Under the pieces are notes generated by a model. It ran no database searches. It was not told where the DNA came from and was given only the letters and a program-made list of their open reading frames with translations. DNA of 64,000 bases, taken from contig JACPLU010000003.1 of NCBI GenBank assembly GCA_016186395.1, positions 11,883 to 75,882 on the forward strand. The letters are read 5' to 3'. Positions 377 through 21,471 of the stretch are shown here, piece after piece (the first letter of the stretch is position 1; each line of letters begins with the position of its first letter). Both the position numbers and the translations under genes were made by a program. Origin of the DNA: Parcubacteria group bacterium. GTDB taxonomy: Bacteria; Patescibacteriota; Minisyncoccia; 2-02-FULL-40-12.

Positions 377-1000
377 TGTCTCCTCCTTGAAGTAAAGAAC
401 GCGTTTGTTGAAATAGCAGTATATACTATGGTAGCATATACTTTTGTTTTTGTCAATTGAATCTAAAAATGTAGGCGGGATTTGTCTCATACTTAAGACC
501 CGAAGCCGGGTGAGCTACCCATGGCCAGGATGAAGTTCCGCGAAAGCGGAATGGAGGTCCGAACCCACGCATGGCGCAATATGCGGGGATGAGCTGTGGG
601 TCGGAGTGAAAAGCTTATCGAACCCGGTAATAGCTGGTTCTCTCCGAAATGCCTTTAGGGGCAGCGTCGGATTATGTTAAGTTGGGGGTAGAGCACTGAT
701 TGGATTTCCGTGCCCTTATGGGTAGGTTTTCCAGCCAAACTCCGAATACCAATTTAATTACTCCGGCAGTGAGACTACGGGGGCGAAGCTCCGTGGTCGC
801 GACGGGAACAGCCGTGATCTCAAGTTAAGGTCCCTAAATTAAGGTTAAGTGTGAAAGGTAGTGAAGACGCTCAAACAACCAGGAGGTTTGCTTAGAAGCA
901 GCCATCCTTTAAAGAGTGCGTAACAGCTCACTGGTCGAGCTTTTTTGCGCCTAAGATGTAACGGGGCTAAAACCTTATACCGAAACTGAGGGTTATCTGT

Positions 1001-1108
1001 GGCTCATCGATGCGTCTAAGGTCAAATGACTAAGGACTAAAGCTGAAAGGTTTAATTTTTGGCTTTAGACTTTAGACTCTAGACTTTAGTCGTGACGATG
1101 AGTCACGG
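1001..1108. repeat. 108-bp hairpin element, copy 1, inserted at the 23S helix-45 IVS hotspot
   Basis: Differs from 2087-2194 by a single nucleotide. Imperfect hairpin: gactaaggactaaagc ... gctttagactttagactctagactttagtc. Flanked by ggctcatcgatg / cgatgagtcacgg. Confidence 0.8.
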
Positions 1109-1666
1109 GTAGCGGTAGGAGAGCGCTTCATGTGCAGTGAAGCCTACGACGTGAGTCGGGGTGGAGCGCATGGAGGTGAGAATGTTGGCATGAGTAACCA
1201 CAATCCGCCTGAAAACGGCGGACGCCGAAAGCCTAAGGATTCCTCCGCGATGGCAATCATCGGAGGGTTAGGCGGCCCTAAGCATAAGTCAGGTTTTGGC
1301 CTGGCGAATGCGATGGACAGCCGGTTAATATTCCGGCCCTTCCTTATATTTTTAAGGAGCCCGGAGCTTAGTAGACTTGGCATATTATTGGATTTATGTT
1401 TGTGATATAAGAATGCGTCTTTGGAAAATCCGGGATGCTGTCTTTAATGACGAATTTAAATATTATGAAAACCCTGGTAACAGGGAATCAAGTTGAGCAA
1501 GCTTCCTAGAAAAACTTCTAAAATTATGTATAAGGAGTCCGTACCGCAATCCGACACAGGTAGGCAGCCAGGGAAACTGGTAAGGCGAACGGGTGAATGG
1601 TGGCTAAGGAACTCGGCAAAACAGCGGGCGTAAGTTCGCAATATGCCCTGCCAGCCGTAGATTTTA

Positions 1667-1953
1667 GTTTTTAATTTAGTTATAAAGTATCCATGTACTG
1701 TATTTATCTAATTCAGCATTCTGTAACAAAACAAATTTATATTGGTCTAACCAATGATTTGAAACGTCGGTTGTATGAACATAATGCTTCACAACAGAAA
1801 GCGACCAAAAGAAAAATTGGAGAATGGGTTTTAGTTTATGCAGAGGCATACAGAAATAAGACGGACGCTCAAATTAGAGAAAGAAAGTTGAAGCAACACG
1901 GAAGTAATAAACGTTGGTTAAAGGACAGAATTAAGTACAGTTTATTTGAAGAT
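1667..1953. other. Second helix-tip insertion in 23S (E. coli helix-63 region), bounded by a 16-bp perfect inverted repeat
   Basis: ccagccgtagatttta (1651-1666) pairs with taaaatctacggctgg (1954-1969). Conserved 23S sequence resumes at ggggactgtttatcaaaaacacag. Confidence 0.7.
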
Positions 1954-1956
1954 TAA
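1693..1956 (+). CDS. GIY-YIG domain protein (87 aa) encoded inside the 23S insertion
   Basis: The YIGLTNDLKRRLYEHN motif is a GIY-YIG core. The ORF is in the same sense as the rRNA. Confidence 0.7.
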   Translation: MYCIYLIQHSVTKQIYIGLTNDLKRRLYEHNASQQKATKRKIGEWVLVYAEAYRNKTDAQIRERKLKQHGSNKRWLKDRIKYSLFED

Positions 1957-2086
1957 AATCTACGGCTGGCCGCAGCGAATGACCTCTGGGGACTGTTTAT
2001 CAAAAACACAGCTCTCTGCTAACTCGAAAGAGGATGTATAGGGGGCGACGCTTGTCCAATGCTGGAACGTTAACGGTGATGGTCGT

Positions 2087-2194
2087 GGCTCATCGATGCG
2101 TCTAAGGTAAAATGACTAAGGACTAAAGCTGAAAGGTTTAATTTTTGGCTTTAGACTTTAGACTCTAGACTTTAGTCGTGACGATGAGTCACGG
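2087..2194. repeat. 108-bp hairpin element, copy 2, inserted in the 23S domain IV helix-68 region
   Basis: Nearly identical to 1001-1108. It interrupts the 23S between ggtgatggtcgtg and ctggagcccgaagcgccagtcaatgacggc. Confidence 0.8.
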
Positions 2195-2241
2195 CTGGAG
2201 CCCGAAGCGCCAGTCAATGACGGCAATAACCATAATTGTCC

Positions 2242-2466
2242 AAAGGTGAATCGCATTGCCTTTGTAAAATCCGACTATATCGGTGAACATCTCACTAAGA
2301 CGTGAGACAATACCGAGGCAATCCGTGAAAACGGAGAGTCCGTAGAGACTAAACGTCGGATCCTGAGCAAGCCGAAAGGCTAGTTGAAGGAAAGATATAG
2401 TCCGAACTGCATGGCGACATGCAGAAATGAGCAGAAATGTCTCGTTCCGCCGAGTCTGATTCGGCG
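2242..2466 (+). mobile_element. Small ORF-less group I intron in 23S, near E. coli position 1917
   Basis: Inserted after ccataattgtcc (E. coli ACGGUCC). Carries P7-like core strands gagactaaacgtcgg and aagatatagtccgaac, like the Tetrahymena CAGACTAAATGTCGG / AAGATATAGTCGGAC. Ends in G. Confidence 0.6.
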
Positions 2467-2529
2467 AAGTAACAATGTTGAGCGCAATTCCTTTCCGGGT
2501 AAGTTACGGAACTTGCCCCATGAAGAAGT

Positions 2530-3200
2530 GATTCTTTATGCAAAGTCGGCTTATAACGGTGGAGCCTGTTTCATGATAAAATGGAATAGAGAATACCGTG
2601 GGAAGTTGTCTTGACCTAACTCAAGATTAACCCCGTAACGACTGAGGCGAAAGCCACAATGGCGTTTTTTGAAACGTCATTATACGCCGACCCCTTAGGA
2701 TATTATGAGGAATATCGAAGAATATATTTCTGGATATGTTGATGGCGAAGGATGTTTTACTGTAACTTTTAACAAAAGGGATAAAGCAAAAATTGGTTGG
2801 GAATTAAGACCAAGTTTTTCAGTCAGTCAGAATGAAGAAAGACGACAGGTGCTAGATATTATACAGAAATATTTTGGATGTGGTTTTATTCGAAGAGATT
2901 ATTCAGACAGAACAGTAAAATTTGAAATTCGAGACCACATACAACTTAGAGATAGGGTTATTCCTCATTTTGAGAGATTTCCATTGCTCTCAAATAAACA
3001 AAAAGATTTTGAATTGTTTAGAGAAGTATGCAAAATTATTGATCATGGAGGTCATCTTACAAAAAGTGGATTTATTAAGATTGTAAATTTTGCTTATCGA
3101 ATGAATGGATCTGGTAAGCGTAAAAGAACTTCCCAAGAAATAATTCGAAATCTTAAATGATACTTAAGGTGATGATATAGTCTATAGTCTTAATTTAAAG
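2530..3200 (+). mobile_element. Group I intron in 23S domain IV, around E. coli 1931-1951, carrying a LAGLIDADG ORF; boundaries approximate
   Basis: Non-rRNA block between ccccatgaag and ggaaccactggaggactgtctcagcc. Shares taaccccgtaacgactga and ataccgtgggaagt with the intron at 4694-5437, and has P7-like ggtgatgatatagtc. Confidence 0.6.
2705..3160 (+). CDS. LAGLIDADG homing endonuclease (151 aa)
   Basis: YISGYVDGEGCF is a LAGLIDADG motif. Size is typical of a single-motif enzyme, and it sits inside a group I intron of the 23S. Confidence 0.8.
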   Translation: MRNIEEYISGYVDGEGCFTVTFNKRDKAKIGWELRPSFSVSQNEERRQVLDIIQKYFGCGFIRRDYSDRTVKFEIRDHIQLRDRVIPHFERFPLLSNKQKDFELFREVCKIIDHGGHLTKSGFIKIVNFAYRMNGSGKRKRTSQEIIRNLK

Positions 3201-3473
3201 ATTAAGAAGTTCCGGAGCGCATGAAAAGCGGAACCACTGGAGGACTGTCTCAGCCACTGGCCCGGTGAAAATGCAATGTCAGTAAAGATGCTGACTACCC
3301 GCACCAAGACGGAAAGACCCCGGAAGCTTTACTGTCTCTTGGTATTGGTCTATGAGTTTGGATGCGTAGTGTAGTGGGTAGGATTTGAAGTCCACCTTTT
3401 GGGGTGGATGGATCCAACAATGAAACACCCATCTTTCAGATTTATAGCTCTAACTGGTGACACCCTAGAAGGA

Positions 3474-3780
3474 AAATTTATAAGGAGGAGATTCTATAAT
3501 GCTATTTGAAGGTTCTCCTAGCCCAACATTTGAAGAAGAAGAAAAGTTTGGATTTAATCTATCAACAAAAATTTATGTTCATATTAATTCACCTCTTTTA
3601 GGTGAAAATGGTAATAAGATAGAAAAGAAATTTGGTGTATTAATCCATCTTTTAACTGGAAAACACGCGAGATTCAAATTAGCTGATCAATTTCGAGTAT
3701 ATGGAAGTGCGGCTAATGTGATAAAATTTTTGAGTAGTTATTTTCAATAAATTTCCTTTTGACAAGCTAGTCTTGTCTCT
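3474..3780. other. Third helix-tip insertion in 23S (domain V helix-78/79 region) carrying a sense-strand gene cassette
   Basis: Bounded by ccctagaa (3464-3471) and ttctaggg (3781-3788). Conserved sequence resumes at caggacagtgcctggtggacagtttgaatggggcg. Confidence 0.6.
3499..3750 (+). CDS. 83-aa protein of unknown function inside the 23S insertion
   Basis: RBS aaggaggag 9 nt upstream of ATG. Hairpin gacaagctagtcttgtc immediately after the stop. Confidence 0.45.
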   Translation: MLFEGSPSPTFEEEEKFGFNLSTKIYVHINSPLLGENGNKIEKKFGVLIHLLTGKHARFKLADQFRVYGSAANVIKFLSSYFQ

Positions 3781-4148
3781 TTCTAGGGTTTCATCAGGAC
3801 AGTGCCTGGTGGACAGTTTGAATGGGGCGTTTCCCTCCTAAAGAGTAACGGAGGGGTCCATAAGGTACCCTAGTCCCGGATGGAAATCGGGACGATAGTG
3901 TAAAAGCATAAGGGTGCTTGACTGCAAGGCAAACGTGCCGCGCAGGTGCGAAAGCAGGGTTTAGTGAACCGACCGTGGCTGGTAGGAGCGCGGAAGATTA
4001 TCGGATAAAAGCTACTCCGGGGATAACAGGCTAGTACCGCCCGAGCGTCCATAGCGACGGCGGTGTTCGGCACCTCGATGTCGGCTCGGCTTATCCTGGC
4101 GGTGAAGAAGCTGCCAAGGGTTGGGCTGTTCGCCCATTAAAAAGCTAC

Positions 4149-4621
4149 GCGAGCTGGGTTCAGACCGTTAAGAATCTGAATCATAAATCATGAAACTTGA
4201 AACATCTTGTTTCGGTTTGATTTGGTTTTTTAACAGTCTGAATCCGAGGATATTCAAAAGACATCATTTAACGGCGGCACTATATAGGAATATATAGTGT
4301 GAAGTTGACCATATCGGTGAAATCCCATTGGGATAACACCTAGGGAAGTTTGTAAACTTTATTGAAGTTCTTTTTTGGGAGGTGTAGCTCAAGAGTATTG
4401 TATGATGAAAGGCGAAAGTCGGGGACTCATACAGTAGCGAGAGCACTGGACTCTGGATCCAGAGGTTGCAGGTAAAAATCCTATCACCACCCACCAATTT
4501 TTGAGTAATCAATATTTGGCACTTCAATAAAGTTTACAAATCCCGTAGAGACTATACGTCAGCCACCCTAATTGAGCTTAGCTCAGCGGGTGAAGATATA
4601 GTCCAGTGCATACAGCAATGT
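4149..4621 (+). mobile_element. ORF-less group I intron in 23S at the I-CreI/I-CeuI-type site (around E. coli 2593)
   Basis: Exon gggttcagaccgt | intron | cgtgagacaggttggtcc matches E. coli GGGUUUAGAACGU|CGUGAGACAGUUCGGUCC. Core strands agactatacgtc and gaagatatagtcc are present and the intron ends in G. The only ORF in it (4264-4527, minus strand) looks spurious. Confidence 0.7.
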
Positions 4622-4693
4622 ATGAAACATGCGTGAGACAGGTTGGTCCTTATCTGGTGTGGGCGTTAAGACTTGAGGGGAGCTGCTCCTAGT

Positions 4694-5437
4694 AGAATTT
4701 GCTACTTTAAGGAGTAATCCTTAATGACAATCCGACTTATAACGGTGGAACCTTATTGCAACTTGATTTGTTGATAACCAGAATTATCCTAATCCAATAA
4801 TTCTGGTACAATTTACTTGAGGACAAGATAGTAATAAGACAATACCGTGGGAAGTCATTCTAAAAACGATTTAGCATATATTTCCGGTTTTCTTGATGGA
4901 GACGGAAGTTTAATGTTGCAGATCAAAAAGTATAAGTACAATAAGTCAGGAAAAAGATTCATGGTAACTATTTGTTTCTATCAGGATTCAAGACACGACA
5001 AACCTCTTTATTGGATCCGTAAGATATTCGGGATAGGGTATATATCTAAAAGAAATGACGGTATTACTGAATTAAGAATAAATGGATATTCTAGAGTAAG
5101 AATAATTTTAGAAAAACTATTGCCGTTTATTAAGTTTAAGAAGAAGCAAGCAAGAATTCTTTATAAAGCGAGTAAATTACTCGAAAAAGAAAAAAAACTT
5201 AAAAAGACTTCCATGATTCGACTCGTAGATTACATAGTAAGAATCCAAGAGGAAAATTATGTGACAAGAAAAAAGAGATCGAAAGATGATTTATTAAAAT
5301 TTTTAGGATTGACCCCGTAACGACTCATCTTTAAAATAGATGGATGGCTGTTTTTAAACAGTCATAATATGTCGGCTCCCATCTTTGTCGATGGGATGAA
5401 GATATAGTCTACTCTTCTGGTGACAGAAGAAAATGTG
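4694..5437 (+). mobile_element. Group I intron in 23S inserted within the sarcin-ricin loop, carrying a LAGLIDADG ORF
   Basis: Joining exons cctagt + acgagaggattgg recreates CUAGUACGAGAGGA. The 5' exon ends in U and the intron ends in G. Core strands taatatgtcgg and gaagatatagtct are present. Confidence 0.65.
4847..5320 (+). CDS. LAGLIDADG homing endonuclease (157 aa)
   Basis: LAYISGFLDGDGSL is a LAGLIDADG motif; the ORF is intron-encoded. Confidence 0.8.
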   Translation: MGSHSKNDLAYISGFLDGDGSLMLQIKKYKYNKSGKRFMVTICFYQDSRHDKPLYWIRKIFGIGYISKRNDGITELRINGYSRVRIILEKLLPFIKFKKKQARILYKASKLLEKEKKLKKTSMIRLVDYIVRIQEENYVTRKKRSKDDLLKFLGLTP

Positions 5438-5517
5438 ACGAGAGGATTGGAGTGGGGAAACCTCTGGCGTACCAGTAGTCCTGCCAAGGGCGTCGCTGGG
5501 TATCTATGTTTCCAAGT

Positions 5518-5548
<31 letters not shown>

Positions 5549-5703
5549 ATGCCCCAAGATTAGGTCTTTCTCTCCTGGAAGACTACCAGGTTGATAGGAT
5601 TCAGGTGTAAGCGCGGCAACGCGTTCAGCCGAGAATTACTAATAGAGAAACAATTTATTTTACCTTTTTTATAAATTCACCGAATACATAGTTTAAGAAT
5701 TGA

Positions 5704-5834
5704 AAAGACTAATTTGGCGATAATGCCGAGTGTGTCCCACCTCTGGTTTGTTTACAAGCCTTAATCCATTCCGAACAGAGAAGTGAAATCACTCAGGGCC
5801 GATGGTAGTTCGAGCTTAGCTCGAGCCAGAGTAG
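5704..5834 (+). rRNA. rrf: 5S rRNA, with a roughly 17-nt expansion in the helix III / loop B region
   Basis: Carries the 5S blocks gtcccacct, ccattccgaacagagaagtgaaa and ggccgatggtag, and ends in agagtaggtcgtcgccag. It lies about 55 bp after the 23S end. Confidence 0.7.
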
Positions 5835-6014
5835 GTCGTCGCCAGATTAGTCTTTTTAATTTGCTCTGTCACCAGGTCCAGCATAGCCACGCACCTTTTG
5901 TAAAACAAAAGGTGCGAGAGTACAAAAAATTAGTGCTGGGCTCCCTGTCCTGTCCGGCAGGCGGGGATGCGGGGCTTCTTGCAATAAAACAGATATTCGC
6001 GGTACGATTGAAGC

Positions 6015-6782: not shown

Positions 6783-6791
6783 CCCTGAAGC

Positions 6792-7919
6792 ATGAAACAT
6801 GAGTCGTGCATCAAAAGGTTTAAAGATGTTTCATGTTTCATGTTTCATGATTTGAGAAAATTAGATTGGTGGCTTTTGACCCCTGTACTCGCTTTATTTT
6901 TAGCGAGTCTTTTAAACTTATACGGCATCGGAGGTTTTGATTCTTTCTTTATAAAACAACTTATTTTTGTATTAGTCGGTCTTGTTCTGTTATTATTTTT
7001 TGTTAGTATTGATTTTAGAATCTTTAGGGAATCAAGTATATTACCATCATTACTTTATGTTGCGTCTCTAATATTTTTATTCGGCACTCTATACTCTTCA
7101 GAAGTTCGCGGTATTAAAGCCTGGTTTTTTATAGGATCTTTTGGGTTTGAACCATCTGAAATTACAAAGTTAGCTTTAATATTATTTCTAGCTAAGTTTT
7201 TTTCGAGTAACGGCGGGCAAAGAACTAACCAACCCTTCTCATTGGGGATATCTTTGATATATACCCTAATTCCTATTGGCTTCATACTTTTACAACCAGA
7301 TTTTGGTTCGGCAGCAGTTTTAGGCGCTATATGGCTAAGTGCGTTAATGAATTTTAAAATCAAAAAGACACATATGCTATTTTCGACAGGTGTTTTGGTG
7401 TTGCTTGGTATTGTGATTTGGATTTTTATGCTCGCGCCGTATCAAAAAGCTAGATTTACTGCTTTTTTAGATCCGTTGGAAGATCCGCGCGGTTCCGGTT
7501 TTCAGAATCTTCAAGCTCAAATTTCAGTTGGTTCCGGAAACTGGTTGGGTTACGGTGTACAAAATGCTACTCAAGTTAAACTTGGTTATTTGTCAGAGCC
7601 AAGAAATGATTTTGCATTTGCGGCCTTTGCCCAACAGTTTGGTTTTTTAGGTACTTCTTTGGTCGTAATTTTGTATGGTTTATTTTTATATAGACTGTCC
7701 TCCATAGGGATATTTACAAAAGACCGATTTGTTCATATATTTGTTTTTGGATTTTTAATTTTTATTTCTACTCATTTAATTATTAATATTGGAATGAATA
7801 TCGGCGTTTTGCCTGTCACAGGAATTCCACTATCCTTTTTTAGTTATGGTGGGAGTCATCTATTAACTTTGATGTCTGGGCTTGGCATTGTTCAAAGTAT
7901 AAAGGTTCATACTTCTTAA
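6792..7919 (+). CDS. SEDS-family peptidoglycan glycosyltransferase (FtsW/RodA)
   Basis: Ten-TM SEDS architecture, with ...DFAFAAFAQQFGFLGTSLV... matching the FtsW/RodA conserved block. An alternative in-frame start at 6840 (MFHDLRKLDWW) lies inside a heptamer repeat array. Confidence 0.85.
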   Translation: MKHESCIKRFKDVSCFMFHDLRKLDWWLLTPVLALFLASLLNLYGIGGFDSFFIKQLIFVLVGLVLLLFFVSIDFRIFRESSILPSLLYVASLIFLFGTLYSSEVRGIKAWFFIGSFGFEPSEITKLALILFLAKFFSSNGGQRTNQPFSLGISLIYTLIPIGFILLQPDFGSAAVLGAIWLSALMNFKIKKTHMLFSTGVLVLLGIVIWIFMLAPYQKARFTAFLDPLEDPRGSGFQNLQAQISVGSGNWLGYGVQNATQVKLGYLSEPRNDFAFAAFAQQFGFLGTSLVVILYGLFLYRLSSIGIFTKDRFVHIFVFGFLIFISTHLIINIGMNIGVLPVTGIPLSFFSYGGSHLLTLMSGLGIVQSIKVHTS

Positions 7920-8368: not shown

Positions 8369-11300
8369 TTGAGTCGTTGCAACTTTTTGCAAAAGAAAAA
8401 TCTCTCAAAATTTTTACCGGAAGTTGCCGAAATACCAAATCTTATAGAGATTCAGTTAGAATCTTTTAATTGGTTGACAAAGGTTGGGCTTCGCGAGCTT
8501 TTTACCGAGGTTTCTCCTATTGAAGATTGGACAGGGGAAGAATATGAATTACATTTTGTTGATTATAGAATTGAAGAACCGAAGTTAGATCAACAAACTT
8601 CTAAAGAAAAAAATATGACTTTTGAGTCTCCGTTGAGGGTAAAGCTTAAATTAATAGACAAGAAAATAGGAGCATCAAAAGAACAGGAAATTTATCTGAG
8701 TGATTTTCCTTTAATGACTGAAAGGGGAACCTTTATTATTAACGGAATTGAACGTGTTGTAATTTCTCAATTAGTTAGGAGTCCAGGCGCATTCTTTGTT
8801 CTTACTAAGGAAAACCGTTTTAGAAAACTCTTTGGCGCAAAAATTATACCTTCACGTGGAGCTTGGTTGGAATTTGAAACCGATGACTCCGGTGTGATTA
8901 GCGTAAGAATTGACAGAAAGAGAAAGGTTGCCGCAACAGCATTGTTGCGGGCTTTTGGTTATGGCACCGACGCAAAGATTAAAGAATTATTTGGATCAGA
9001 TGAGAAAATAATGCAATATGTTGCGCCTACCTTAGTGCAGGATCCATCTTCTTCGGAAGAAGAAGGTTTGGTGGAGATTTACAAACGCATTAGACCGGGT
9101 GACAGAGCTACGGTCGATAACGCCAGACAGATGGTTCATAATATGTTCTTTAATTTCAGTCGATATGATTTATCAAACGTTGGAAGACATAGGATGAATC
9201 AAAGATTTAATGGAAGTTTTCCTCTTGATGAAAAAAATAGAGTTTTAAAGCCGGAAGATATAGTAGAGGTTATGAAAGAGATTATAAGATTGAACAATGA
9301 TCCTCAAGCCGAACAAGATAATATTGATCATTTATCAAACAGAAGAGTAAAAACTATTGGTGAACAACTTCAAGGTAAATTAAGGATCGCTCTTGCAAGA
9401 ATTGAACGTATTGTGAAAGACAGAATGAGTACATTTGAGGTTGAAACAATCGTGCCAGCCCAGCTGATTAATTCTCGTCCTTTTAATGCCGCACTGAAAG
9501 AATTTTATGCTTCTGGTCAGCTCTCACAATTTATGGATCAGACTAATCCCTTATCTGAACTTGAGCATAAACGCAGGCTGTCAGCCTTGGGTCCCGGGGG
9601 ATTGTCTAGAGAAAGAGCGGGATTTGATGTTCGTGATGTCCACCCGAGTCACTACGGACGTATTTGTCCGATTGAGACTCCGGAAGGGCCAAACATCGGG
9701 TTAGTCGGTCACTTAGCAAGCTTTGCAAAGATTTCTCCCCTCGGATTTATCACTACTCCTTATAGAAAAGTTGAAAAAGGAAAGGTTTTGGATGACATAA
9801 TTTATATGGATGCGGCTGAAGAAGAGAAATTTGTAATTGCACAGGCCGGTATTAATATTGATTCTAATGATAAAATTTTAGATAAAATGGTTGCCGCGAG
9901 GGTTAATGGGGAACCAAGTTTTGTTCATGTAAGCGAGGTGGAGTTTATTGACGTGTCTCCCAAGCAGCCATTTTCTGTTGCTACTTCTCTAATTCCATTT
10001 TTAGAGCATGATGACGCAAATCGCGCTTTGATGGGATCTAATATGCAACGTCAGGCGGTTCCACTTGTCCGAACTCAAGCGCCATTAGTTGGAACCGGAA
10101 TGGAAAACAGGGTAGCTAAAGATTCCGGCATGGTTGTTGTCGCAGAAGACAATGGAGTTGTTAATTCAGTTGACGGTTCAAAGGTGGTCATCAAAACTGA
10201 TGCCGGTAAAACTAAGACTTATAATTTGTTAAAGTTTGCAAAATCAAACGCTTATACATCTATTAACCAAAAGCCTTTAATTGAGCCTGGTGAAAGAGTT
10301 AAGAAGGGTCAAGTTATTGCAGATGGTCCATCTACGGATAATGGCGAGTTGGCTTTAGGCCAAAATCTTTTGGTGGCCTTTCTTTCTTTTGAGGGTGCCA
10401 ACTTTGAAGATGCCATAGTTATATCCGAACGTTTAGTAAAAGAAGATACATTTTCGTCTATTCATATAGAGGACTATACAATAGATGTAAGAGAGACAAA
10501 ATTAGGTCCGGAAGTAATAACTTGTGATATCCCAAATGTAAGCGAAGAGAGGTTAAAGGATTTGGACAGCCAAGGAATTGTTAGAGTTGGGGCGGAAGTG
10601 AGATCACAAGATATTTTAGTCGGAAAGATTTCTCCAAAAGGTGAAGGTGATTTAACCCCAGAAGAAAGATTACTTCGGGCTATTTTTGGTGAGAAATCAA
10701 GAGATGTGAAAGATACCTCTTTGCGTCTTCCTCATGGTAAACAAGGAAGGGTTGTGGGTGTTAAGATTTTTTCGCGCGATGAGGGGTATAAATTGCCAGC
10801 AGGTGTTATGCAGACAATACAAGTTTCAATAGCTCAACGTAGAAAAGTTCAAGTTGGTGATAAACTTGCTGGAAGACACGGTAATAAAGGGGTAATATCG
10901 ACCATTTTGCCAGAAGAGGATATGCCGTTTTTACCAGATGGGCGTCCTGTTGATATTGTTTTAAGTCCTTTGGGTATTATCTCTCGTATGAATATAGGTC
11001 AGATTCTTGAAACTCATTTGGGATGGGCAGCAGACAAATTAAATTATCGAGCGGTAGTTCCTTCAATGGGCGGACCGACAGAGGCCGCTATCAAAGAGGA
11101 ACTTAAGAAAGCGGGTTTACCAGAAAATGGAAAGATTCAGCTTTATAATGGGAAAACAGGTACGCCGTTTGATCAGGAGACTACTGTTGGCATAATTTAT
11201 TTTATGAAATTGGGACATTTAGTTGAAGATAAGATTCATATGCGAGCCATAGGGCCATACTCATTGATTACACAGCAGCCATTAGGAGGAAAGGCCCAAT

Positions 11301-11533
11301 TTGGCGGCCAAAGATTTGGAGAGATGGAAGTATGGGCTCTTGAAGGATATGGAGCGGCTTATACATTGCAAGAGATGTTAACCATAAAGTCAGATGATGT
11401 AGTCGGAAGAGCCAAAACATATGAAGCAATCGTGAACAACGAAGAAATAAAGGCTCCGCATATACCCGAATCTTTTAAGGTGTTATTGTCAGAAATTAAA
11501 GGTTTGGGATTAGATGTGGAATTACAAGAATAA
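8369..11533 (+). CDS. rpoB: DNA-directed RNA polymerase beta subunit
   Basis: Full-length RpoB homology ([23 protein letters not shown], the NMQRQ region). Uses a TTG start, at 8369 or 8387; there is no ATG after the in-frame TAG at 8336. Confidence 0.95.
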
Positions 11534-11605
11534 GTCGCTAGCCACTAGAAACTAGCCACTAGGAGTTTTTAATCTAGTCGTTAGTCATTAGTCGTTAGTC
11601 ATTAG
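11534..11605. repeat. CTAG/TAG-rich tandem repeats immediately 3' of rpoB
   Basis: gctagccactagaaactagccactagg, followed by tagtcgttagtcat x2. TAG occurs in all three forward frames. Related to the repeat at 23338-23415. Confidence 0.7.
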
Positions 11606-14600
11606 TTGGACTTTAGCTCAATTCGTGTAAAACTTGCTTCGCCAGAAGATATCTTAAACTGGTCACATGGAGAGGTAACAAAGCCGGAAACCATAAACTA
11701 TAGGACTCAAAGACCAGAGCCCGAGGGTTTGTTTTCGGAAAAGATTTTCGGTCCACAAAAAGACTGGGAATGTTATTGCGGTAAATATAGGAGAATAAGG
11801 TATAAGGGAATTATTTGTGATCGTTGCGGGGTAGAGGTTACTCGTTCTATAGTTCGACGTGAAAGAATGGGACATATTAGTTTGGCGGCTCCAGTCGCTC
11901 ATATTTGGTTTTTGCGCGGAGTACCAAGCAGAATGGCGATGTTGCTTGATTCATCTTTACCGGAATTGGAAAAAGTAATTTATTTTGCGGCCTATATAGT
12001 TACCAGAGTTAATGAAGAAGCTAAAACAGAAGCAATGAAAAAACTTGAGAGTGAGTTTCGTTCGGCAATGGCTATCTTAAAGAAGAAAGGGAATGACGAA
12101 AAGGAATTAGAAAAATTGAGAGCAATTAAAGAGCGTGAACGGCTTCTGCTTAGAAATATTCAAAAATATCAGATTCTTTCAGAAGTTGACTATCGAGAGC
12201 TTTCGTTGAAATATGCGGAAGTTTTTGAGGCCGGGATTGGTGCTGAAGCGGTGAAAAAATTGCTTTCAGAAATTGACTTGAATAGTTTGGCAATAGATGT
12301 CGAAAATAAACTTACTTCGGTTGATAACCCATTCTTGCAAAAGAAGATAGTAAGGAGATTAAAGTTGCTTAAAGGATTGGCGAAAGCCGGTATTAGGCCA
12401 GAATGGATGTTTCTTGATGTCATTCCGGTTATTCCACCTGATCTTAGACCAATGGTTCAGTTAGATGGTGGTCGTTTTGCCACATCGGACCTGAACGATC
12501 TTTATCGAAGAGTAATAAATCGGAATAACCGGTTAAAACACCTTATTGAATTAAGAGCGCCAGAAGTCATAACCAGAAACGAGAAAAGAATGTTGCAAGA
12601 AGCAGTAGACTCTTTAATAGATAATGCAATGAGAAGGGGACAGACAATTACCACTTCACAAGCTGGCCAGCGAAGAGCATTAAGGTCTTTGGCCGATATG
12701 TTAAAGGGAAAACAAGGAAGATTTAGACAGAACCTTTTAGGTAAAAGGGTTGATTATTCTGGACGTAGTGTAATCGTTATCGGACCAGAGTTGAATTTTG
12801 ACCAATGTGGTTTGCCAAAACACATGGCATTGGAACTTTTTAAACCTTTTGTAATTCAGAAATTAAAGGAAAGGGGAATAATTCATAACATTCCTGGAGC
12901 AAGACGACTTATTGAACAGGAAAGCCCCGAAGTTTGGGAAGCGTTAGAGGAGGCTATAAAAGATAAATTAGTTCTTCTTAATCGAGCTCCAACTTTACAT
13001 AGATTGGGAATTCAGGCTTTTCGTCCTATTCTTCACGAAGGTAAGGCGATCAGAATTCCGGCCATGCCAACTCATGCTTTTAACGCTGACTTTGACGGTG
13101 ACCAAATGGCTGTTCATTTGCCCTTAACCAAAGAGGCACAGGAGGAAGCCAAAAATTTGATGCTTTCTTCTAAGGGAATTCTAAAACCGGCCACTGGTCG
13201 TCCCATTGCTACGCCGACTAAAGATATTGCTTTTGGGATTTATTATTTAACTCTTGGAATTGACGGATTAATTGGTGAGGGGAAGGTTTTCGGTTCTCCG
13301 GGGGAAGCATTGATGGCATATGATAACAAATGTATTGAACTCCATTCTAAAATAAAAGTACGTTTTAATTCAAATTTAGAGACGGCAACTGACGAGAATA
13401 TAAAAAGTGAATTGGTTTTAACTACTGTTGGGAGGATTTTATTTAGTAAGATTTTACCAAGCGGAATGGCATATGTAAATCAAGCTTTAAACAAGTCTGA
13501 TCTTGAAAAAATAGAAGCAACAATTTTAGAGAAGTATGGAGAAACAATGGCAGCGGATTTTTTGAACAACGTTAAAGATCTTGGTTTCTTTTTCGCAACC
13601 GTTTCCGGTATATCGTGGTCTATGGATGATCTTCGTATTCCGGAGGAAAAACATCAAATTGTTGCTAAAGCTGATGAGTTGATTGAAAAAAATCACGAAC
13701 TTTATGAGCAAGGTCTTTTAACGGATCTTGAGCGAAAAATTAAAGCTATCGAAATATGGAATGACGTTAAGTCTGAAATTGGGAAATCAGTTAAAAAGGC
13801 TTTAAGATCTGATGATCCGGTTAAGATTATAGTAGATTCAAAGGCTCGAGGAAGTTGGGATACGGTTAACCAGCTTATGGGTATTAGAGGTTTATTTGCT
13901 AATCCAGCCGGAGAAATTATTGAACTGCCCGTGAAAAATTCTTTCAAAGAGGGCTTAAACGTTTTGGAATATTTTATTTCTACTCATGGTGCCCGAAAAG
14001 GATTAGCCGATACAGCCTTGCGTACGGCTACAGCAGGCTATCTTACTCGTAGATTAGTTGACGTAGCTCAAGATATCGTTGTTAGGGAGGAAGATTGTAA
14101 AGACAGCGAGGGCTATGATATTTATCGTGAAGATGGTAACTATACTGGAGAAACTTTGGGTGGCAGGGTTAGAGGAAGATTTGCCGCAGAAACAATAAAA
14201 TCAGATACAGGCGAAATTATAGCTAAGAAAGGAGAGTTAATAGATAAGGCTAAGGGTGACAAGATGGATTTAGCAAAGCTTAACCAAGTTCGGGTTCGTT
14301 CGGTTATAACTTGTAAGTCAAGAATTGGTTTGTGTCAGACTTGCTATGGTTATGATTTGGGTAGAAATAAAATTGTAGAACTCGGAGAATCGGTAGGAAT
14401 AGTAACGGCTCAAGCTATTGGAGAACCAGGCACCCAGCTTACTATGAGAACATTCCATACCGGTGGAGTTGCCGCATCTGGAGATATTACGTTGGGTTTG
14501 CCCCGTGTTGAGGAAATTTTTGAAGCCCGTATTCCCAGGTCACCAGGTGTAATTTCTGACGTTGACGGCAGGGTGGTCTCTATAGAAGAAAAGGGAAAGC

Positions 14601-15247
14601 AGAAGATTGTAAAAATTGAAATTACCAAAACTTCTAAAGAAGGTGGAGAAGTTGTTGCAAAACCTAGCGGTGAAATTAGAGAAATGATATTTCATCATCA
14701 CATTGCTTTAACTATGAAAGAGGGCGATGTTGTAATAAAAGGACAACCTCTTTCGGAAGGCCATCTTGATTTAAAAGAATTATTTATGATTACGGGCCGT
14801 AATAAAGCAGCCGTTGCTAGATACATAACCAGGGAAATTGAAAGCATTTACTTTACTTCTGGTGAGGGAATTCACGACAAACACGTTGAATTAATTATTC
14901 GTCAGATGTTTTCTCGCGTTAGAATTATAGATTCTGGAGATACGGACTTATTGGCTGGGGAAATAATGGAGGTCGGTCTAGTTTTAAATGAAAATGACAG
15001 AGTAATTGAAAAAGGGAAGAAGCCTGCTCAATTTGAACAATTATTGCTTGGTATTACCAAAGTATCTTTAACCACAGAAAGCTTTTTGTCAGCAGCTTCG
15101 TTCCAAGAGACGGCCAGAGTTTTAATTGATGCGTCAATTATGGGTAAAGAAGATCGGTTAAGGGGACTAAAGGAAAATGTAATTATCGGTCGTTTGATTC
15201 CTGCGGGGACGGGGTATCGGGTAAGAGAAGAAGGTGGTTTAGTGTAG
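11606..15247 (+). CDS. rpoC: DNA-directed RNA polymerase beta' subunit
   Basis: LASPEDILNWSHGEVTKPETINYRT and NADFDGDQMAVH are beta' hallmarks. Uses a TTG start. Confidence 0.95.
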   Translation: MDFSSIRVKLASPEDILNWSHGEVTKPETINYRTQRPEPEGLFSEKIFGPQKDWECYCGKYRRIRYKGIICDRCGVEVTRSIVRRERMGHISLAAPVAHIWFLRGVPSRMAMLLDSSLPELEKVIYFAAYIVTRVNEEAKTEAMKKLESEFRSAMAILKKKGNDEKELEKLRAIKERERLLLRNIQKYQILSEVDYRELSLKYAEVFEAGIGAEAVKKLLSEIDLNSLAIDVENKLTSVDNPFLQKKIVRRLKLLKGLAKAGIRPEWMFLDVIPVIPPDLRPMVQLDGGRFATSDLNDLYRRVINRNNRLKHLIELRAPEVITRNEKRMLQEAVDSLIDNAMRRGQTITTSQAGQRRALRSLADMLKGKQGRFRQNLLGKRVDYSGRSVIVIGPELNFDQCGLPKHMALELFKPFVIQKLKERGIIHNIPGARRLIEQESPEVWEALEEAIKDKLVLLNRAPTLHRLGIQAFRPILHEGKAIRIPAMPTHAFNADFDGDQMAVHLPLTKEAQEEAKNLMLSSKGILKPATGRPIATPTKDIAFGIYYLTLGIDGLIGEGKVFGSPGEALMAYDNKCIELHSKIKVRFNSNLETATDENIKSELVLTTVGRILFSKILPSGMAYVNQALNKSDLEKIEATILEKYGETMAADFLNNVKDLGFFFATVSGISWSMDDLRIPEEKHQIVAKADELIEKNHELYEQGLLTDLERKIKAIEIWNDVKSEIGKSVKKALRSDDPVKIIVDSKARGSWDTVNQLMGIRGLFANPAGEIIELPVKNSFKEGLNVLEYFISTHGARKGLADTALRTATAGYLTRRLVDVAQDIVVREEDCKDSEGYDIYREDGNYTGETLGGRVRGRFAAETIKSDTGEIIAKKGELIDKAKGDKMDLAKLNQVRVRSVITCKSRIGLCQTCYGYDLGRNKIVELGESVGIVTAQAIGEPGTQLTMRTFHTGGVAASGDITLGLPRVEEIFEARIPRSPGVISDVDGRVVSIEEKGKQKIVKIEITKTSKEGGEVVAKPSGEIREMIFHHHIALTMKEGDVVIKGQPLSEGHLDLKELFMITGRNKAAVARYITREIESIYFTSGEGIHDKHVELIIRQMFSRVRIIDSGDTDLLAGEIMEVGLVLNENDRVIEKGKKPAQFEQLLLGITKVSLTTESFLSAASFQETARVLIDASIMGKEDRLRGLKENVIIGRLIPAGTGYRVREEGGLV

Positions 15248-15480
15248 AAAACTCAATTATGAATTTCTTTTCGTATTCAACATCAACAAATAGTATTCGG
15301 TAAATCTTAATTTTCTGACAAAATTTTAGTATCCGTTTGCCATTACCAAAAACCAGGCATAAATGCCTGGTTTTTGGTAACATGTTTTCCGACTAAAATT
15401 TTGTTCTCATAAAATTAATGATTTGTCTCATCTATTTGTATTGATGTTTCATAAAGCAGAAATTTATAATTGAGTTTTCT
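15248..15480. repeat. Imperfect long inverted repeat of about 230 bp, centred on the rpoC terminator
   Basis: agaaaactcaattatgaatttct... (15243-15300) and its reverse complement agaaatttataattgagttttct (15455-15480). Inner arms aaattttgtcagaaaattaag and aaattttgttctcataaaattaat also pair. Confidence 0.6.
15343..15380. terminator. Bidirectional-type hairpin terminator after rpoC, at the centre of a large palindrome
   Basis: ttaccaaaaaccaggca..tgcctggtttttggtaa. The A/T runs form part of the stem. Confidence 0.65.
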
Positions 15481-18568: not shown

Positions 18569-19651
18569 TTATTCGTTAAGCCAGAACCAAAATTGATTTT
18601 TAAGTTTCTGAGACAATTTATATGAATCAGCGTGGCTCAAAACACCGAGATATGATTGCAAGGATTGTTCGAGGGTTTCATTTGTTATAACTCCCGATTT
18701 ATACTCCGCAATTTTTTTATTTAATTTTTTAAATATCCGTTGTCTTGTTTTAGCTCTAAGAATTCGATAATGAGGGAAAACTATATACCCGAGAAAATCT
18801 ATTCCCCGTTGAAATTTATTGATAGAAATCTTTTTTGGATGAATTTCCAGTTGTAGTCTTTGCCTTAGGAAAGAACTTATTTTTGGGATTAATCCTGATA
18901 GGTAATCACGACTGTCAGAAACTATGGTAAAGTCATCGGTATAACGGCAATAATATTTCACTTTTAAATCATGTTTAATAAACTGATCAGATTCGTTCAT
19001 ATAGATGTTTGCGAAAAGCTGTGAGGTTAAATTGCCTATTGGTAGACCCTTTCTGGCGAATAAATTTGAGCAAGAAGACAGAAAACTTCTGATAACCTTT
19101 TCAAGTAGCCAGATGGTATCTGTGTCTCGAATCCGTTTCTTCAGTATAGAAATCAAAATTTTATGATCTACCGCATCAAAAAACTTTTTAACATCACATT
19201 TAAGAATGAAGCAAGGTTTCGTTCCATTGCCGGATACTTTTCTGGTCATCTGTTCAAGGACGCGGATTCCTTTGTGGCTTCCGAATCCAACCCGACAAGA
19301 AAAAGAATTTTGAATGAATGTTTGTTCAAAAATCGGATTGGCTACCGAAAAGATGGCATGATGCAAAATTCTATCCCGAACCGTGGCTTTGTGGATATGC
19401 CTTTGTTTTGGGTCTCGGATGTAGAAACCAGTATATTGTCCGTGTTCATAAGTCTTATTCTGAAGTTCTCGACGAAGTTTAAAAATATTTTCTTCAAGAC
19501 AAAATTCAAATCTTTGAACATCAACTTTATTCCTCTTGTCGCTTTTGAAAGTATCCCACGCTGAAAATAGGTTTTCCAGCGAGATTATTTTATTAAACAA
19601 GTTTTTATAGGTTTTCATAATAAAATTAAATGAACGAATTCGATACCCCAA
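18569..19651 (-). CDS. Diversity-generating retroelement reverse transcriptase
   Basis: RT motifs are present: KCDVKKFFDAVDH (motif A), LPIGNLTSQLFANIYMN, where the [I/L]GxxxSQ form is typical of DGR RTs rather than the group II intron QGxxxSP, and YCRYTDDF (YxDD). The length of about 350 aa fits. The true start is probably MKTYKN at 19618. Confidence 0.85.
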   Translation of the reverse strand: MGYRIRSFNFIMKTYKNLFNKIISLENLFSAWDTFKSDKRNKVDVQRFEFCLEENIFKLRRELQNKTYEHGQYTGFYIRDPKQRHIHKATVRDRILHHAIFSVANPIFEQTFIQNSFSCRVGFGSHKGIRVLEQMTRKVSGNGTKPCFILKCDVKKFFDAVDHKILISILKKRIRDTDTIWLLEKVIRSFLSSCSNLFARKGLPIGNLTSQLFANIYMNESDQFIKHDLKVKYYCRYTDDFTIVSDSRDYLSGLIPKISSFLRQRLQLEIHPKKISINKFQRGIDFLGYIVFPHYRILRAKTRQRIFKKLNKKIAEYKSGVITNETLEQSLQSYLGVLSHADSYKLSQKLKNQFWFWLNE

Positions 19652-19977
19652 TATTTATAAAATCCTACGATTTATACAAGCTATTTTATAGTTTCCGTAC
19701 CCTGGTTCCCAAAAATGACCGCTACACAATCTGGCAAAGGTGCGAAAATTTAATGCTGGATATAATCGATGGAATTCTATATGCCAGCCAAATTTCAAAA
19801 ATTGAGAAACTCCCGATTCTTGAAAAAACAAGCATGAAGTTAAGTCTCCTGCGTGTTTTTGTTCGGCTTATGAAAGATACCAAAGCGATAGATAATAAGA
19901 AATACGTATCACTCGAAACCATTATCGACGAAATTGGCCGTCAGCTTGGAGGCTGGATAAAATCAACTAAAGGATAA
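19630..19977 (+). CDS. avd: DGR accessory variability determinant (Avd-like four-helix-bundle protein)
   Basis: 115 aa. The C-terminus IDEIGRQLGGWIKSTKG resembles Bordetella phage Avd IAEVGRILGSWIARVNRKG, and the N-terminal region VPKNDRYTIWQRCEN resembles IPRKHGVAREMFLKC. Transcribed divergently from the RT. Confidence 0.65.
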   Translation: MNEFDTPIFIKSYDLYKLFYSFRTLVPKNDRYTIWQRCENLMLDIIDGILYASQISKIEKLPILEKTSMKLSLLRVFVRLMKDTKAIDNKKYVSLETIIDEIGRQLGGWIKSTKG

Positions 19978-20023
19978 CAGAATACCCGCCAACTGGCGGG
20001 TATTCTTAATGAGGAGCGACTTC

Positions 20024-20148
20024 GAAAGGAACCCAGACGCGGAGCCATAGTTGTCGTTCGGGTTGCTTACGTCGTTCGTGTTGAACTTGACCTTGTCGTC
20101 GTTGAAGTTGAAGTACGGCGCGCTGCTGAACCTGCCATCAGCGTCTGG
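20024..20148 (-). repeat. DGR template repeat (TR)
   Basis: 125 bp homologous to 20620-20744. All 15 mismatches are T on plus (A on the coding/minus strand) in this copy. The translated frame is Asn-rich (NFNDDKVKFNTNDVSNPNDNY), typical of AAC-rich TRs. The 70-aa ORF 19963-20175 is therefore not a gene. Confidence 0.85.
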
Positions 20149-20613
20149 AAATTGCTTTTGCCCATCTATAGTCACCGGATATCGAGGCTTGCCACCTTAA
20201 CGGTCTATATCCTCTCAATCCTGAATTTTATTCGGGAGCATCTCGCAAAAGAATCTCCGCTGGGCGGAAGCAAGCAGTAGTCTCCTCAATTTGGCACTCT
20301 CGGAGAATCCGTGAACGCTCCGACTCTGGCCGTTTGATCTCTTTTTTGAAGAGAGAGTTCGGTGACGGCAATCCGAGAGCGATTCTAGTCGGGCTAAAGC
20401 GCCGACTAAGAAACTTCGCCCAGATAAACTGCCGTTCATTAACCTAAGCTCACAGGAAGTATACAAATAATCCAATTAAAAGTGAATATATAAAAAGAAA
20501 AAGAGGGCCACCCACGATGGAACTGTGGATAACCCTCTCAAAAATTTCGCCGAACTCAAGGATCAAGAAACAACGAATCAAAAGATCCAAGTGTTCGAGC
20601 GATCAAGGCCCTA

Positions 20614-21471
20614 CTACTGCGAAAGGAACCCAGACGCGGAGCCAAAGCTGTCGTCCGGGTCGCTCACGCCGTACGCGTTGAACTTGACCCTGACGTCGTC
20701 GAAGAGGAAGTACGGCGCGCTGCCGAACCTGCCATCAGCGCCTGGACTGTACTCATCGCCTGGGCAGTCGATGTGCAACTGTTCCCATTGAATGAGCCGT
20801 TCCGGATGAGACAGAAGCATGCAGTCGACGATGAACGAGCCGAGCCCGAACTCGTGAGGAGCATAGACCACGCGCATCCTTCGCACGGACCGACCCCGAT
20901 GGGTCAGGCCGAACTGGGCTGGGATCAGTAGAAAGTCGCCCTTCTGCTTTTCGCCGATCATCTGGAGCGCGACGGCTGTCCGTTCGGAGAGCCGCAGGTA
21001 TTTCGGGCCGAGCGCGCCTTTGCGGTAGTTGTGGAAGGTGCGGGTCTTTCCGATCAGGTCGAGAACCTTCTCGACAGCCTCGTTGTACGAGGACGCAACC
21101 TTCTCCCACCGCGGAACGGCGAACCAGCCTTCCGCGCCAGCGGGCAGAGCCGGAAGCTCCTTGGAGCAGGCCAGCACCGAACTGGTGTTGAGACCGTTGA
21201 AGTGCTTGGAGAGCTCCACGAGCTGTTCGCAGACCGGCTTCACGGCGTACCCTTGCGGATAGCCGTAGTTGGACTTCACCTCTTCGTTGGCGAAGAACGG
21301 ACTCGCCGTGACGAGAGGTGCCGAGGTCACTTCCTTCTCCTCGACGATGGACTGCAGGTTCCTGGCGACGAAACTCGGCTCGAGCGTCCCTTCCATGAGG
21401 CGGCGCTGGACTTCCCACATGCGGCGGGAAATCGTTCCGAGAGTGTCGTCTGCGACGATGTGAGTCGTCAT
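20614..21471 (-). CDS. DGR target (variable) protein, 285 aa, with a C-terminal VR-encoded ligand-binding region
   Basis: Good RBS aaggagg upstream of the start. The C-terminal 40 aa (...PGADGRFGSAPYFLFDDVRVKFNAYGVSDPDDSFGSASGFLSQ) is paralogous to the TR translation. About 58% GC, unlike the surrounding sequence. No signal peptide was detected. Confidence 0.8.
   Translation of the reverse strand: MTTHIVADDTLGTISRRMWEVQRRLMEGTLEPSFVARNLQSIVEEKEVTSAPLVTASPFFANEEVKSNYGYPQGYAVKPVCEQLVELSKHFNGLNTSSVLACSKELPALPAGAEGWFAVPRWEKVASSYNEAVEKVLDLIGKTRTFHNYRKGALGPKYLRLSERTAVALQMIGEKQKGDFLLIPAQFGLTHRGRSVRRMRVVYAPHEFGLGSFIVDCMLLSHPERLIQWEQLHIDCPGDEYSPGADGRFGSAPYFLFDDVRVKFNAYGVSDPDDSFGSASGFLSQ
20620..20744 (-). 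repeat. DGR variable repeat (VR) at the 3' end of the target gene
   Basis: Matches the TR except at template-adenine positions. It ends 4 nt from the target stop codon. The GC-rich 3' end ctccgcgtctgggttcctttc is conserved between TR and VR (IMH-like). Confidence 0.85.

Follow-up and report, generated by a model that had tools for sequence, protein, structure and literature searches.

The STRR repeats of heterocyst-forming cyanobacteria are tandem arrays of 7-nt units, with CCCCAGT, TTGGTCA and CAACAGT as the units of STRR1-3. These heptanucleotide repeats were reportedly described by Mazel et al. in 1990, and Vioque is said to have found one inside an RNase P RNA gene in 1997. Known since about 1990, they are still unexplained in origin and function. 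Hairpins made of them lie between the co-transcribed genes hupS and hupL and in the hoxW region; what they do there is unknown, and suggested roles are in the stability of the transcript or in translational coupling (PMC2670836). Direct repeats of another heptamer, TAACTGA, occur in marine Beggiatoaceae, some Cyanobacteria and Bacteroidetes, and a post-transcriptional role has been proposed for them (MacGregor 2015, PMC4679880). More generally, heptanucleotides are the commonest long simple repeats in most bacterial genomes and polymerase slippage was proposed as their source, according to Mrazek et al. 2007 as summarised in PMC4679880. A further class of intergenic repeats, the REP, BIME and REPIN palindromes, comprises short, imperfect, high-copy extragenic sequences that often lie between co-transcribed genes and are transcribed as stem-loops affecting mRNA stability (PMC3116915, PMC3733652). 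Here we describe heptamer-periodic hairpins in a 64,000-nt stretch (the window) of contig JACPLU010000003.1 from a Parcubacteria group bacterium, with emphasis on two CTAG-rich elements that occupy the rpoB-rpoC and ssb-rpsR spacers. Both are likely members of a class of heptamer-periodic hairpin repeats that extends through the genome, which was examined as the 64-kb window together with overlapping short Logan contigs; only two CTAG copies were visible there.

A sequence-only reading of this stretch had pointed to CTAG-rich tandem repeats directly after the stop codons of rpoB and ssb, and the sequences were confirmed at both loci. The parts of the first element (copy 1), with its flanking genes and the basis of each assignment, are as follows.

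8369-11533, plus strand: rpoB, the cistron upstream of copy 1 (Pfam RNA_pol_Rpb2 domains)
11534-11605, plus strand: CTAG-family heptamer hairpin copy 1, the entire 72-nt rpoB-rpoC intercistronic spacer (sequence, fold)
11538-11562, plus strand: copy 1 left arm, CTAGCCA CTAGAAA CTAGCCA CTAG (sequence, TRF, inverted-repeat alignment)
11563-11573, plus strand: copy 1 loop, GAGTTTTTAAT, containing TTTTTAAT, which is common to the loop of copy 2
11574-11605, plus strand: copy 1 right arm, CTAGTCG TTAGTCA TTAGTCG TTAGTCA TTAG (sequence, TRF)
11606-15247, plus strand: rpoC, the cistron downstream of copy 1 (TTG start aligned to the ATG of relatives, M-D-F-S)

Copy 1 opens with GTCG directly 3′ of the rpoB stop codon TAA (11531-11533). 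Its right arm consists of a 14-nt unit repeated 2.3 times with a 100% match (TRF), and the register of this array continues into the rpoC TTG start codon (11606), which aligns with ATG-GAC-TTT (M-D-F) in relatives and is a weak start compared with their ATG. Folding of copy 1 gave -23.4 kcal/mol (z -3.1), with the left arm pairing with the right arm and the outermost helix formed by AAGUC at the rpoB stop and GACUU of rpoC codons 2-3.

The second element (copy 2) has the same layout on the opposite strand, within the rpsF-ssb-rpsR operon.

23925-23979, minus strand: heptamer hairpin in the rpsF-ssb spacer, GWCTAAR family (GTCTAAN / CTTTAGN; fold, inverted-repeat alignment)
23416-23913, minus strand: ssb (Pfam SSB; exact 165-aa product on record)
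23334-23418, minus strand: CTAG-family heptamer hairpin copy 2, comprising the ssb stop codon and the ssb-rpsR spacer (sequence, fold)
23385-23418, minus strand: copy 2 left arm, (C)TAGAAA CTGGCCA CTAGCCA CTAGAAA CTAGTAA (inverted-repeat alignment)
23372-23384, minus strand: copy 2 loop, AGAACATTTTTAA (inverted-repeat alignment)
23336-23371, minus strand: copy 2 right arm, TTA CTAGGCA CTAGTCGCG CTAGGCA CTAGTCGC TA (TRF, alignment)
23100-23333, minus strand: rpsR (S18), the cistron downstream of copy 2 (S18 annotated at the same position in the relatives L164 and L165)

The ssb-rpsR spacer is 82 nt long (23334-23415, minus strand) and, as in copy 1, contains two period-7 arrays flanking an A/T-rich loop, in the order CTAGAAA CTGGCCA CTAGCCA CTAGAAA CTAG / taaagaacatttttaatta / CTAGGCA CTAGTCGCG CTAGGCA CTAGTCGC. 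The ssb stop codon TAG (23418-23416) doubles as the first repeat unit. The tandem unit on this side had been taken for a 15-mer, which was wrong: the right arm is a 16-nt unit repeated 1.9 times with a 100% match (TRF). Folding gave -26.9 kcal/mol (z -2.9), again with the left arm paired with the right arm. The true start of ssb is the ATG at 23913, giving 165 aa, and the 171-aa open reading frame (ORF) that begins inside the neighbouring array has no exact record. In rpsR, the stretch from the in-frame TAG upstream to the conserved C-Q-L-C motif has no ATG, GTG or TTG; the first plausible start codon, ATC (23333-23331), is aligned with the ATG in a close relative (L083), suggesting that rpsR uses a non-canonical ATC start.

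Both copies fill the whole intercistronic spacer within a conserved operon (rpoB-rpoC and rpsF-ssb-rpsR), and each hairpin has the stop codon at its 5′ base and the following start codon at its 3′ base. A common core of 14 nt had been described, and an exact 14-mer does occur in the window at copies 1 and 2 only, but the match is longer and extends to an exact 18-mer, CTAGCCACTAGAAACTAG. Both right arms, in addition, contain CTAGTCG. The alignment score between the two copies was 60, compared with 19.9 +/- 5.6 (maximum 40.5) for shuffled sequences and 9-42 for the other heptamer hairpins of the window, and CTAG is scarce in the window overall (102 observed, 138-216 expected), with copies 1 and 2 as its only really dense clusters. 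Judged by this alignment, the copies are two members of one sequence family. The pairing blocks of this family are 5-6 bp long (ACUAG with CUAGU or UUAGU) and are separated by 1-2 mismatches, so that the stem itself is 7-nt periodic; this alternation can be attributed to CTAG being self-complementary. Logan assemblies made independently from several sequencing runs contain identical element sequences, so an artefact of assembly is excluded.

Three independent Logan short-read assemblies (L168, L169 and L170) stop 71 nt past the rpoB stop, within the right-arm tandem repeat of copy 1, and, in a check for variation in unit number, the Logan contigs were mutually identical up to this break point. 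Heptamer arrays evidently break de Bruijn-graph, short-read assemblies.

The CTAG elements are not isolated in the window. A self-similarity scan of its 64 kb found 12 segments at lag 7, whereas the other lags from 3 to 15 gave 0-1 segments, except for lag 14 (twice 7) with 4, and TRF likewise reported many period-7 arrays. Eleven of the 12 lie outside protein-coding sequence; the sole lag-7 segment inside a protein-coding gene is a weak one (GATTCAA, about 4 units, 48845-48886) in the Mur ligase C-terminal domain, where it is read in frame as RFKIQGS. Folding and unbiased inverted-repeat alignment identified about 14 heptamer hairpins, which fall into at least four unit families: CTAG (2 copies), GWCTAAR/YTTAGWC (6), TGAAACA/TGTTTCA (4) and AAAATCA/TGATTTT (3). 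Besides those in the rpoB-rpoC and rpsF-ssb-rpsR operons, they are found at the following positions.

999-1108, plus strand: 110-nt heptamer hairpin replacing a helix loop of the large-subunit rRNA (Rfam model about 1204-1226, helix-45-like; repeat search, fold)
2085-2194, plus strand: second 110-nt copy in another large-subunit helix loop (model about 1888-1900; 99% identical to the first)
4160-4241, plus strand: TGAAACA-family hairpin at the 3′ end of the 23S rRNA gene
6786-6852, plus strand: TGAAACA/ATGTTTC hairpin in the spacer preceding ftsW
32797-32866, minus strand: AAAATCA/TGATTTT hairpin between tRNA-Leu and the RNase J gene
34165-34261, minus strand: GGAACAT/ATGTTTC heptamer hairpin between a solute-binding protein gene and pgi
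44281-44350, plus strand: TGAAACW array/hairpin in the divergent uvrB-ruvA spacer
52140-52210, plus strand: GWCTAAR-family hairpin
53590-53705, plus strand: GWCTAAR-family element of about 115 nt, with a non-periodic tail, TTAAGCTACACATGA
62646-62760, plus strand: second copy of the approximately 115-nt GWCTAAR element, 82-85% identical including the tail
63840-63940, plus strand: AAAATCA-family hairpin after the D-Ala-D-Ala carboxypeptidase gene

Most arrays are inverted pairs with true reverse-complement arms (GACTAAG/CTTAGTC, TGAAACA/TGTTTCA). Heptamer hairpins were present in 8 of 29 co-directional spacers, 1 of 6 divergent spacers (uvrB-ruvA) and none of 4 convergent spacers, and the two hairpins of about 110 nt, 99% identical, substitute for the loop tips of two different 23S rRNA helices. 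The niche of the repeats is thus wider than the 3′ ends of highly expressed genes and takes in any non-coding space that tolerates them, co-directional and divergent spacers as well as rRNA loop tips. A scan of the window at Rfam gathering thresholds returned 23S rRNA, 5S rRNA and one tRNA only, with no match at either CTAG element. CRISPR or TIGR arrays were considered and dismissed on the 7-nt period and the size of the repeats.

The arrays also bear on the annotation of the genes next to them. The first in-frame start codons of the ssb ORF (23914-23931) and of the ftsW ORF (6792-6851) fall within heptamer arrays, which mislead naive start-codon calling. The Pfam match of ftsW begins at residue 30 of the ORF starting at 6792, and the position of this domain suggests that the real start probably lies later. 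The distance from array to start codon is 0 nt for the rpoC TTG, 2 nt for the rpsR ATC and 11 nt for the ssb ATG. Shine-Dalgarno-like motifs were found upstream of about 6 of 39 ORFs in the window, and the lack of such a motif before rpoC or rpsR is therefore not unusual, as most genes of the window are without one.

In the rpoB-rpoC and ssb-rpsR operons, the only classical terminators (G+C-rich stem plus T-run) are those downstream of rpoC and of rpsR, and they contrast with the CTAG elements.

15343-15380, plus strand: canonical terminator-like hairpin after rpoC, at the end of the operon (terminator scan)
23046-23073, minus strand: canonical terminator after rpsR, AAACCCG ttaaaag CGGGTTT GTTTTTT (sequence)

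At the CTAG elements themselves there was no terminator call on the sense strand and no T-run, the tails being TTGGACTT and AACATCGT.

Comparison with related loci showed that the architecture is kept while the sequence is not. A protein of an NCBI MAG labelled 'Parcubacteria group bacterium' is 100% identical to RpoB of the window; the next-closest RpoB relatives (Paceibacterota/Yanofskybacteria) are 73% identical, and their rpoB-rpoC spacers are 4 nt (L163) and 3 nt (L164) long, or contain a 56-nt non-heptamer palindrome beginning TTTAGGTGTCCGACACCTCAG (L165) or a 154-nt hairpin of AATTCCT/AGAAATT heptamers (L166 and L167). Since these relatives hold 3-4 nt, another palindrome or different heptamers, the 72-nt rpoB-rpoC element is lineage-specific. 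At the second locus, the relative with an 89% identical SSB (L083) has a hairpin of different units in its ssb-rpsR spacer (AACTATT AACAATT AACCTAT AACTATT / TTAACAG TTAGCAG TTAAATA) and no CTAG array. Heptamer arrays of yet other units were present in the rpsF-ssb or ssb-rpsR spacers of 10 further SSB-related metagenome loci, which look like Patescibacteria from their gene context, and the right arm in these loci usually ends 0-11 nt ahead of the next start codon. The sequence of the unit thus turns over fast between window and relatives, while the heptamer-hairpin architecture persists. Arrays of at least three YTAG-N3 units, searched for in about 2 Mb of loci, were found in this organism and at two other loci only (L087 and L105), and were always intergenic.

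The density of period-7 arrays was 18.8 per 100 kb in the window, 7.4 in the SSB-related loci (21 of 79 loci with arrays) and 3.8 in the relatives with 73% identical RpoB; cyanobacterial loci had 15.6 and other bacteria, in which periods of 6, 9 and 12 dominate, had 0.2. The background set came from a contig search with RpoB, in which the relatives among the matches listed were at most 62% identical, and it includes a locus from Desmonostoc (L060, Nostocales). In this cyanobacterium (GGAGTTA/GGAGTGA)n comes after the rpoB stop, then a spacer and (ACTCATA/ACTCCTA)n, and next rpoC1, and the same locus carries CCCCAGT-, TGGTCAT/TAGTCAT- and TTAGTCA/TGGTCAT-type arrays.

Several other observations were made in these loci. 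In L165 (Paceibacterota) a classical REP-like palindrome, ACTTAGGTGTCCGACACCTCAG-nnn-CTGAGGTGTCGGACACCTAAGT, is found at no fewer than seven intergenic sites in 23 kb (663-20860), and it occupies rpoB-rpoC and ssb-rpsR, the same two niches as the CTAG family. In L083 (about 520-610) some 90 nt without counterpart in the window break the rpsR frame after D-Y-K-N, and the frame picks up again at F-L-M-P-D-L-K; an insertion, a small intron-like element and an assembly problem are all possible causes. Units with TTAGTC/GACTAA recur in the window, in L088, in Desmonostoc L060 and in a viral contig, L171 (IMGVR_UViG_3300008268_000427), where a (GTTAGTC/ATTAGTC)n array at 5600-5660 lies in a short inter-ORF spacer and was treated as incidental. 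The 18-mer CTAGCCACTAGAAACTAG was absent from the viral contigs searched.

On the best reading of these data, the elements are fast-evolving, dispersed, slippage-prone hairpin repeats of the STRR kind. An element copy or a seed heptamer would enter a tolerated non-coding site and would then grow by slipped-strand duplication in 7-nt steps, a mode of growth proposed because every arm consists of a 14- or 16-nt unit duplicated perfectly in tandem, independently of the other arm; the elements would persist wherever a stem-loop is tolerated. Being intercistronic and free of terminator features, the CTAG elements should be part of the mRNA if rpoC and rpsR are expressed, and they are probably transcribed within the polycistronic mRNA as intercistronic stem-loops. 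Folding there would loop the insert out and keep the stop codon and the next start close together, such that translational coupling survives; this would preserve the tight coupling that relatives reach with 3-4-nt spacers. A secondary effect on mRNA stability or on RNase III processing is possible. The elements are probably close to neutral passengers and not designed signals, and the functional part of this reading is the weak one.

Several points weigh against this interpretation. The helix that brings the rpoB stop and the rpoC start together has only 5 bp and is the outermost of the copy 1 fold. In hairpins aligned without bias to either opposition, G.U exceeded A.C oppositions by 33 to 12 in the window, mostly in the rRNA inserts, whereas in relatives the counts were 5 and 13, in the opposite direction (p = 0.10); as this signal is inconsistent, the complementarity may reflect the origin of the elements rather than selection on the RNA. 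The sequence-only reading had also suggested a small insertion element, and this fits in part: there is a sequence family, there are dispersed copies of 82-99% identity and the spacer is lineage-specific, but no pair of empty and filled sites from a very close relative and no target-site duplication was seen.

The rival closest to the preferred reading is that the arrays are purely neutral slippage debris, left by 7-nt replication slips without any effect at the RNA level, with the hairpin incidental (for example, from the palindromic CTAG core). This overlaps with dispersed, slippage-prone repeats and differs only in denying the dispersal of units and a consequence for the RNA. Perfect tandem duplication in every arm, rapid unit turnover among relatives, the lack of a G.U-over-A.C bias in those relatives and the slippage proposed for heptanucleotide repeats in the summary of Mrazek et al. 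cited above all speak for it, but slippage alone does not make inverted pairs with true reverse-complement arms, the dispersed copies of 82-99% identity include non-periodic parts, and the insertions at rRNA helix tips leave the helices intact, and we consider it unlikely. It is quite unlikely that the heptamer hairpins are instead actively propagating miniature elements, or the product of a dedicated mechanism that steps by 7 nt, having arisen in or spread to Nostocales and Patescibacteria, inserting into loop tips and spacers with the helices preserved, and co-opted in operons for a translational coupling that allows weak starts (rpoC TTG, rpsR ATC).

Readings that assign the CTAG arrays a designed function fared worse. 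The earlier suggestion of a deliberate three-frame stop trap, in which the arrays would halt readthrough or frameshifted ribosomes at the ends of highly expressed genes, started from the presence of TAG in every frame. This is true, and a TAG every 7 nt closes all frames in the first 21 nt past the rpoB and ssb stops, but it is automatic for any 7-nt unit containing TAG and hence a by-product of the period. Stop triplets are no more frequent than base composition predicts (34 of 54 period-7 units hold one on a given strand, compared with 33.0 +/- 2.8 after base permutation), and the mild over-representation of units with stops on both strands (26 versus 19.0, p about 0.02), which is independent of orientation, can be attributed to the palindromic YTAR cores. 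A trap would also not need the right arms, which lie 40-70 nt past the stop and are equally TAG-rich; sister arrays at equivalent positions lack stops (ATGTTTC, AAAATCA), the same spacers in relatives are 3-4 nt long or hold non-CTAG hairpins, leaving the CTAG motif absent at orthologous sites, and hairpins of the same class sit within 23S rRNA and in a divergent promoter spacer, which together make the trap extremely improbable. A role in terminating or attenuating transcription in the rpoB-rpoC spacer and behind ssb is hardly probable at all, despite the long stem-loop directly after each stop codon: neither element has a G+C-rich stem with a T-run, the sense-strand scan called nothing, rpoC and rpsR begin 0-2 nt from the elements with no room for promoters of their own, and the canonical terminators stand further downstream. 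Lastly, arrays of the form UAG-N4-UAG-N4-UAG could be bound by a HutP/TRAP-type or other regulator of rpoC and rpsR; both arms of both elements carry 4-5 UAG (or UUAG/CUAG) spaced by exactly 4 nt, and regulator binding has been proposed for TAACTGA repeats directly upstream of start codons (MacGregor 2015, PMC4679880). This is very improbable, given that the motif is not kept in the orthologous spacer of L083 or in the relatives with 73% identical RpoB, that four or more unrelated heptamer families take equivalent positions in the same genome, that no candidate binding protein came to light, a search aimed at one not being possible, and that YTAG-N3 arrays are as rare in related DNA as stated above.

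The window contains further features outside this class. A complete diversity-generating retroelement is present on the minus strand (18569-21471), with a 131-nt template repeat and variable repeat that are 88% identical and in which all 16 mismatches fall at adenines of the template copy.

18569-19651, minus strand: reverse transcriptase ORF of the retroelement (Pfam RVT_1, 4.6e-23)
20019-20149, minus strand: template repeat of the retroelement
20616-20746, minus strand: variable repeat of the retroelement, at the C-terminal end of the ORF 20614-21471

Within the rRNA region (393-5847), the 23S rRNA gene is 3842 nt long, compared with a 2925-nt model, and includes an ORF for a LAGLIDADG endonuclease (2705-3160), presumably carried by an intron; the stretch from the 23S to the 5S gene has another, weaker LAGLIDADG ORF (4847-5320). 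Two dispersed direct repeats shared by 41374-41512 and 54563-54735 (28 nt at 79% and 42 nt at 95% identity) suggest that an element some 150 nt long is repeated; one copy adjoins rpsT (41537-41794) and the other is located in or beside an unannotated 95-aa ORF. A G+C-rich 51-nt unit occurs twice beside tRNA-Leu(CAG), at 32983-33033 and 33060-33110 (77-nt spacing, 90% identity), and this repeat (32983-33110) had no Rfam or ARAGORN match. ARAGORN called a tRNA-Phe(AAA) at 24951-25025, within a glmS-like ORF (24859-26766), for which Rfam makes no call; it is probably a false positive.

Compared with described systems, the rRNA copies recall the intervening sequences of 23S rRNA, which sit in helices 25 and 45, as two 110-nt heptamer hairpins extend 23S helix tips and one of these is helix-45-like, but this likeness is limited to the rRNA copies and excludes the CTAG elements. 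The HutP site consists of two sets of three or more UAG triplets with 4-nt spacers; that spacing is present in both arms of both CTAG elements, as a pattern only, and it is absent from the orthologous spacers, unlike a conserved site. Simple direct arrays of the kind attributed to slippage share the period of 7, and, as far as the summary of Mrazek et al. goes, leave the inverted pairing and the near-identical dispersed copies unexplained. Like REP and REPIN sequences, the elements are short imperfect palindromes that are extragenic and multi-copy; REPs, however, lack internal periodicity. By inspection, the terminal GTAG/CGTC tag of REPs (PMC3733652) was absent from the elements, whose ends are GTCGCTAG.../...CATTAG and TCTAGAAA.../...GTCGCTA, and no RAYT/Y1 transposase was found among 30 ORFs of the 64-kb window scanned with Pfam, a scan that was not exhaustive. 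The TAACTGA repeats are closer, being intergenic heptamer arrays (2-6 units there) in ribosomal-protein and RNA-polymerase gene contexts that end a few nucleotides from the start codon, in place of a Shine-Dalgarno sequence. They differ in having one dominant unit and 169 direct sets versus one indirect set (PMC4679880), whereas the window has many unit families, mostly as inverted pairs, with CTAGCCA/CTAGAAA and TTAGTCR units in place of TAACTGA.

The closest likeness is to the STRR repeats. Shared features are the 7-nt tandem units in many dispersed non-coding arrays, the adjacent inverted arrays able to form hairpins between genes, as also seen in Desmonostoc L060, the entry into a structured RNA gene, the unknown function and the density of arrays (18.8 per 100 kb in the window, 15.6 in cyanobacterial loci). 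On the other side, the host is a member of the Parcubacteria and not a heterocystous cyanobacterium, the RNA invaded is 23S rRNA and not RNase P RNA, and the units of the window are A/T-rich (CTAGCCA, GACTAAG, TGAAACA, AAAATCA), although one of them, TTAGTCA, which is also present in L060, is one base off the STRR unit TTGGTCA. Because host lineage and unit sequence both differ, the elements are of the same kind as STRR but not STRR proper; common descent is neither shown nor likely, and the resemblance is one of kind. No paper linking heptamer repeats to Patescibacteria or Parcubacteria was found in a limited literature search, which does not prove novelty; the occurrence of STRR-like heptamer hairpins in a lineage of the candidate phyla radiation is of moderate interest. 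Heptamer arrays can be over-read as designed signals, as in the case of the stop trap. The window presents the architecture of the STRR repeats in a minimal-genome member of the Parcubacteria, remote from cyanobacteria, with the same architecture at lower density in the SSB-related loci, and so offers a second, much simpler system for asking why the period is 7 and what such hairpins do to polycistronic mRNAs.

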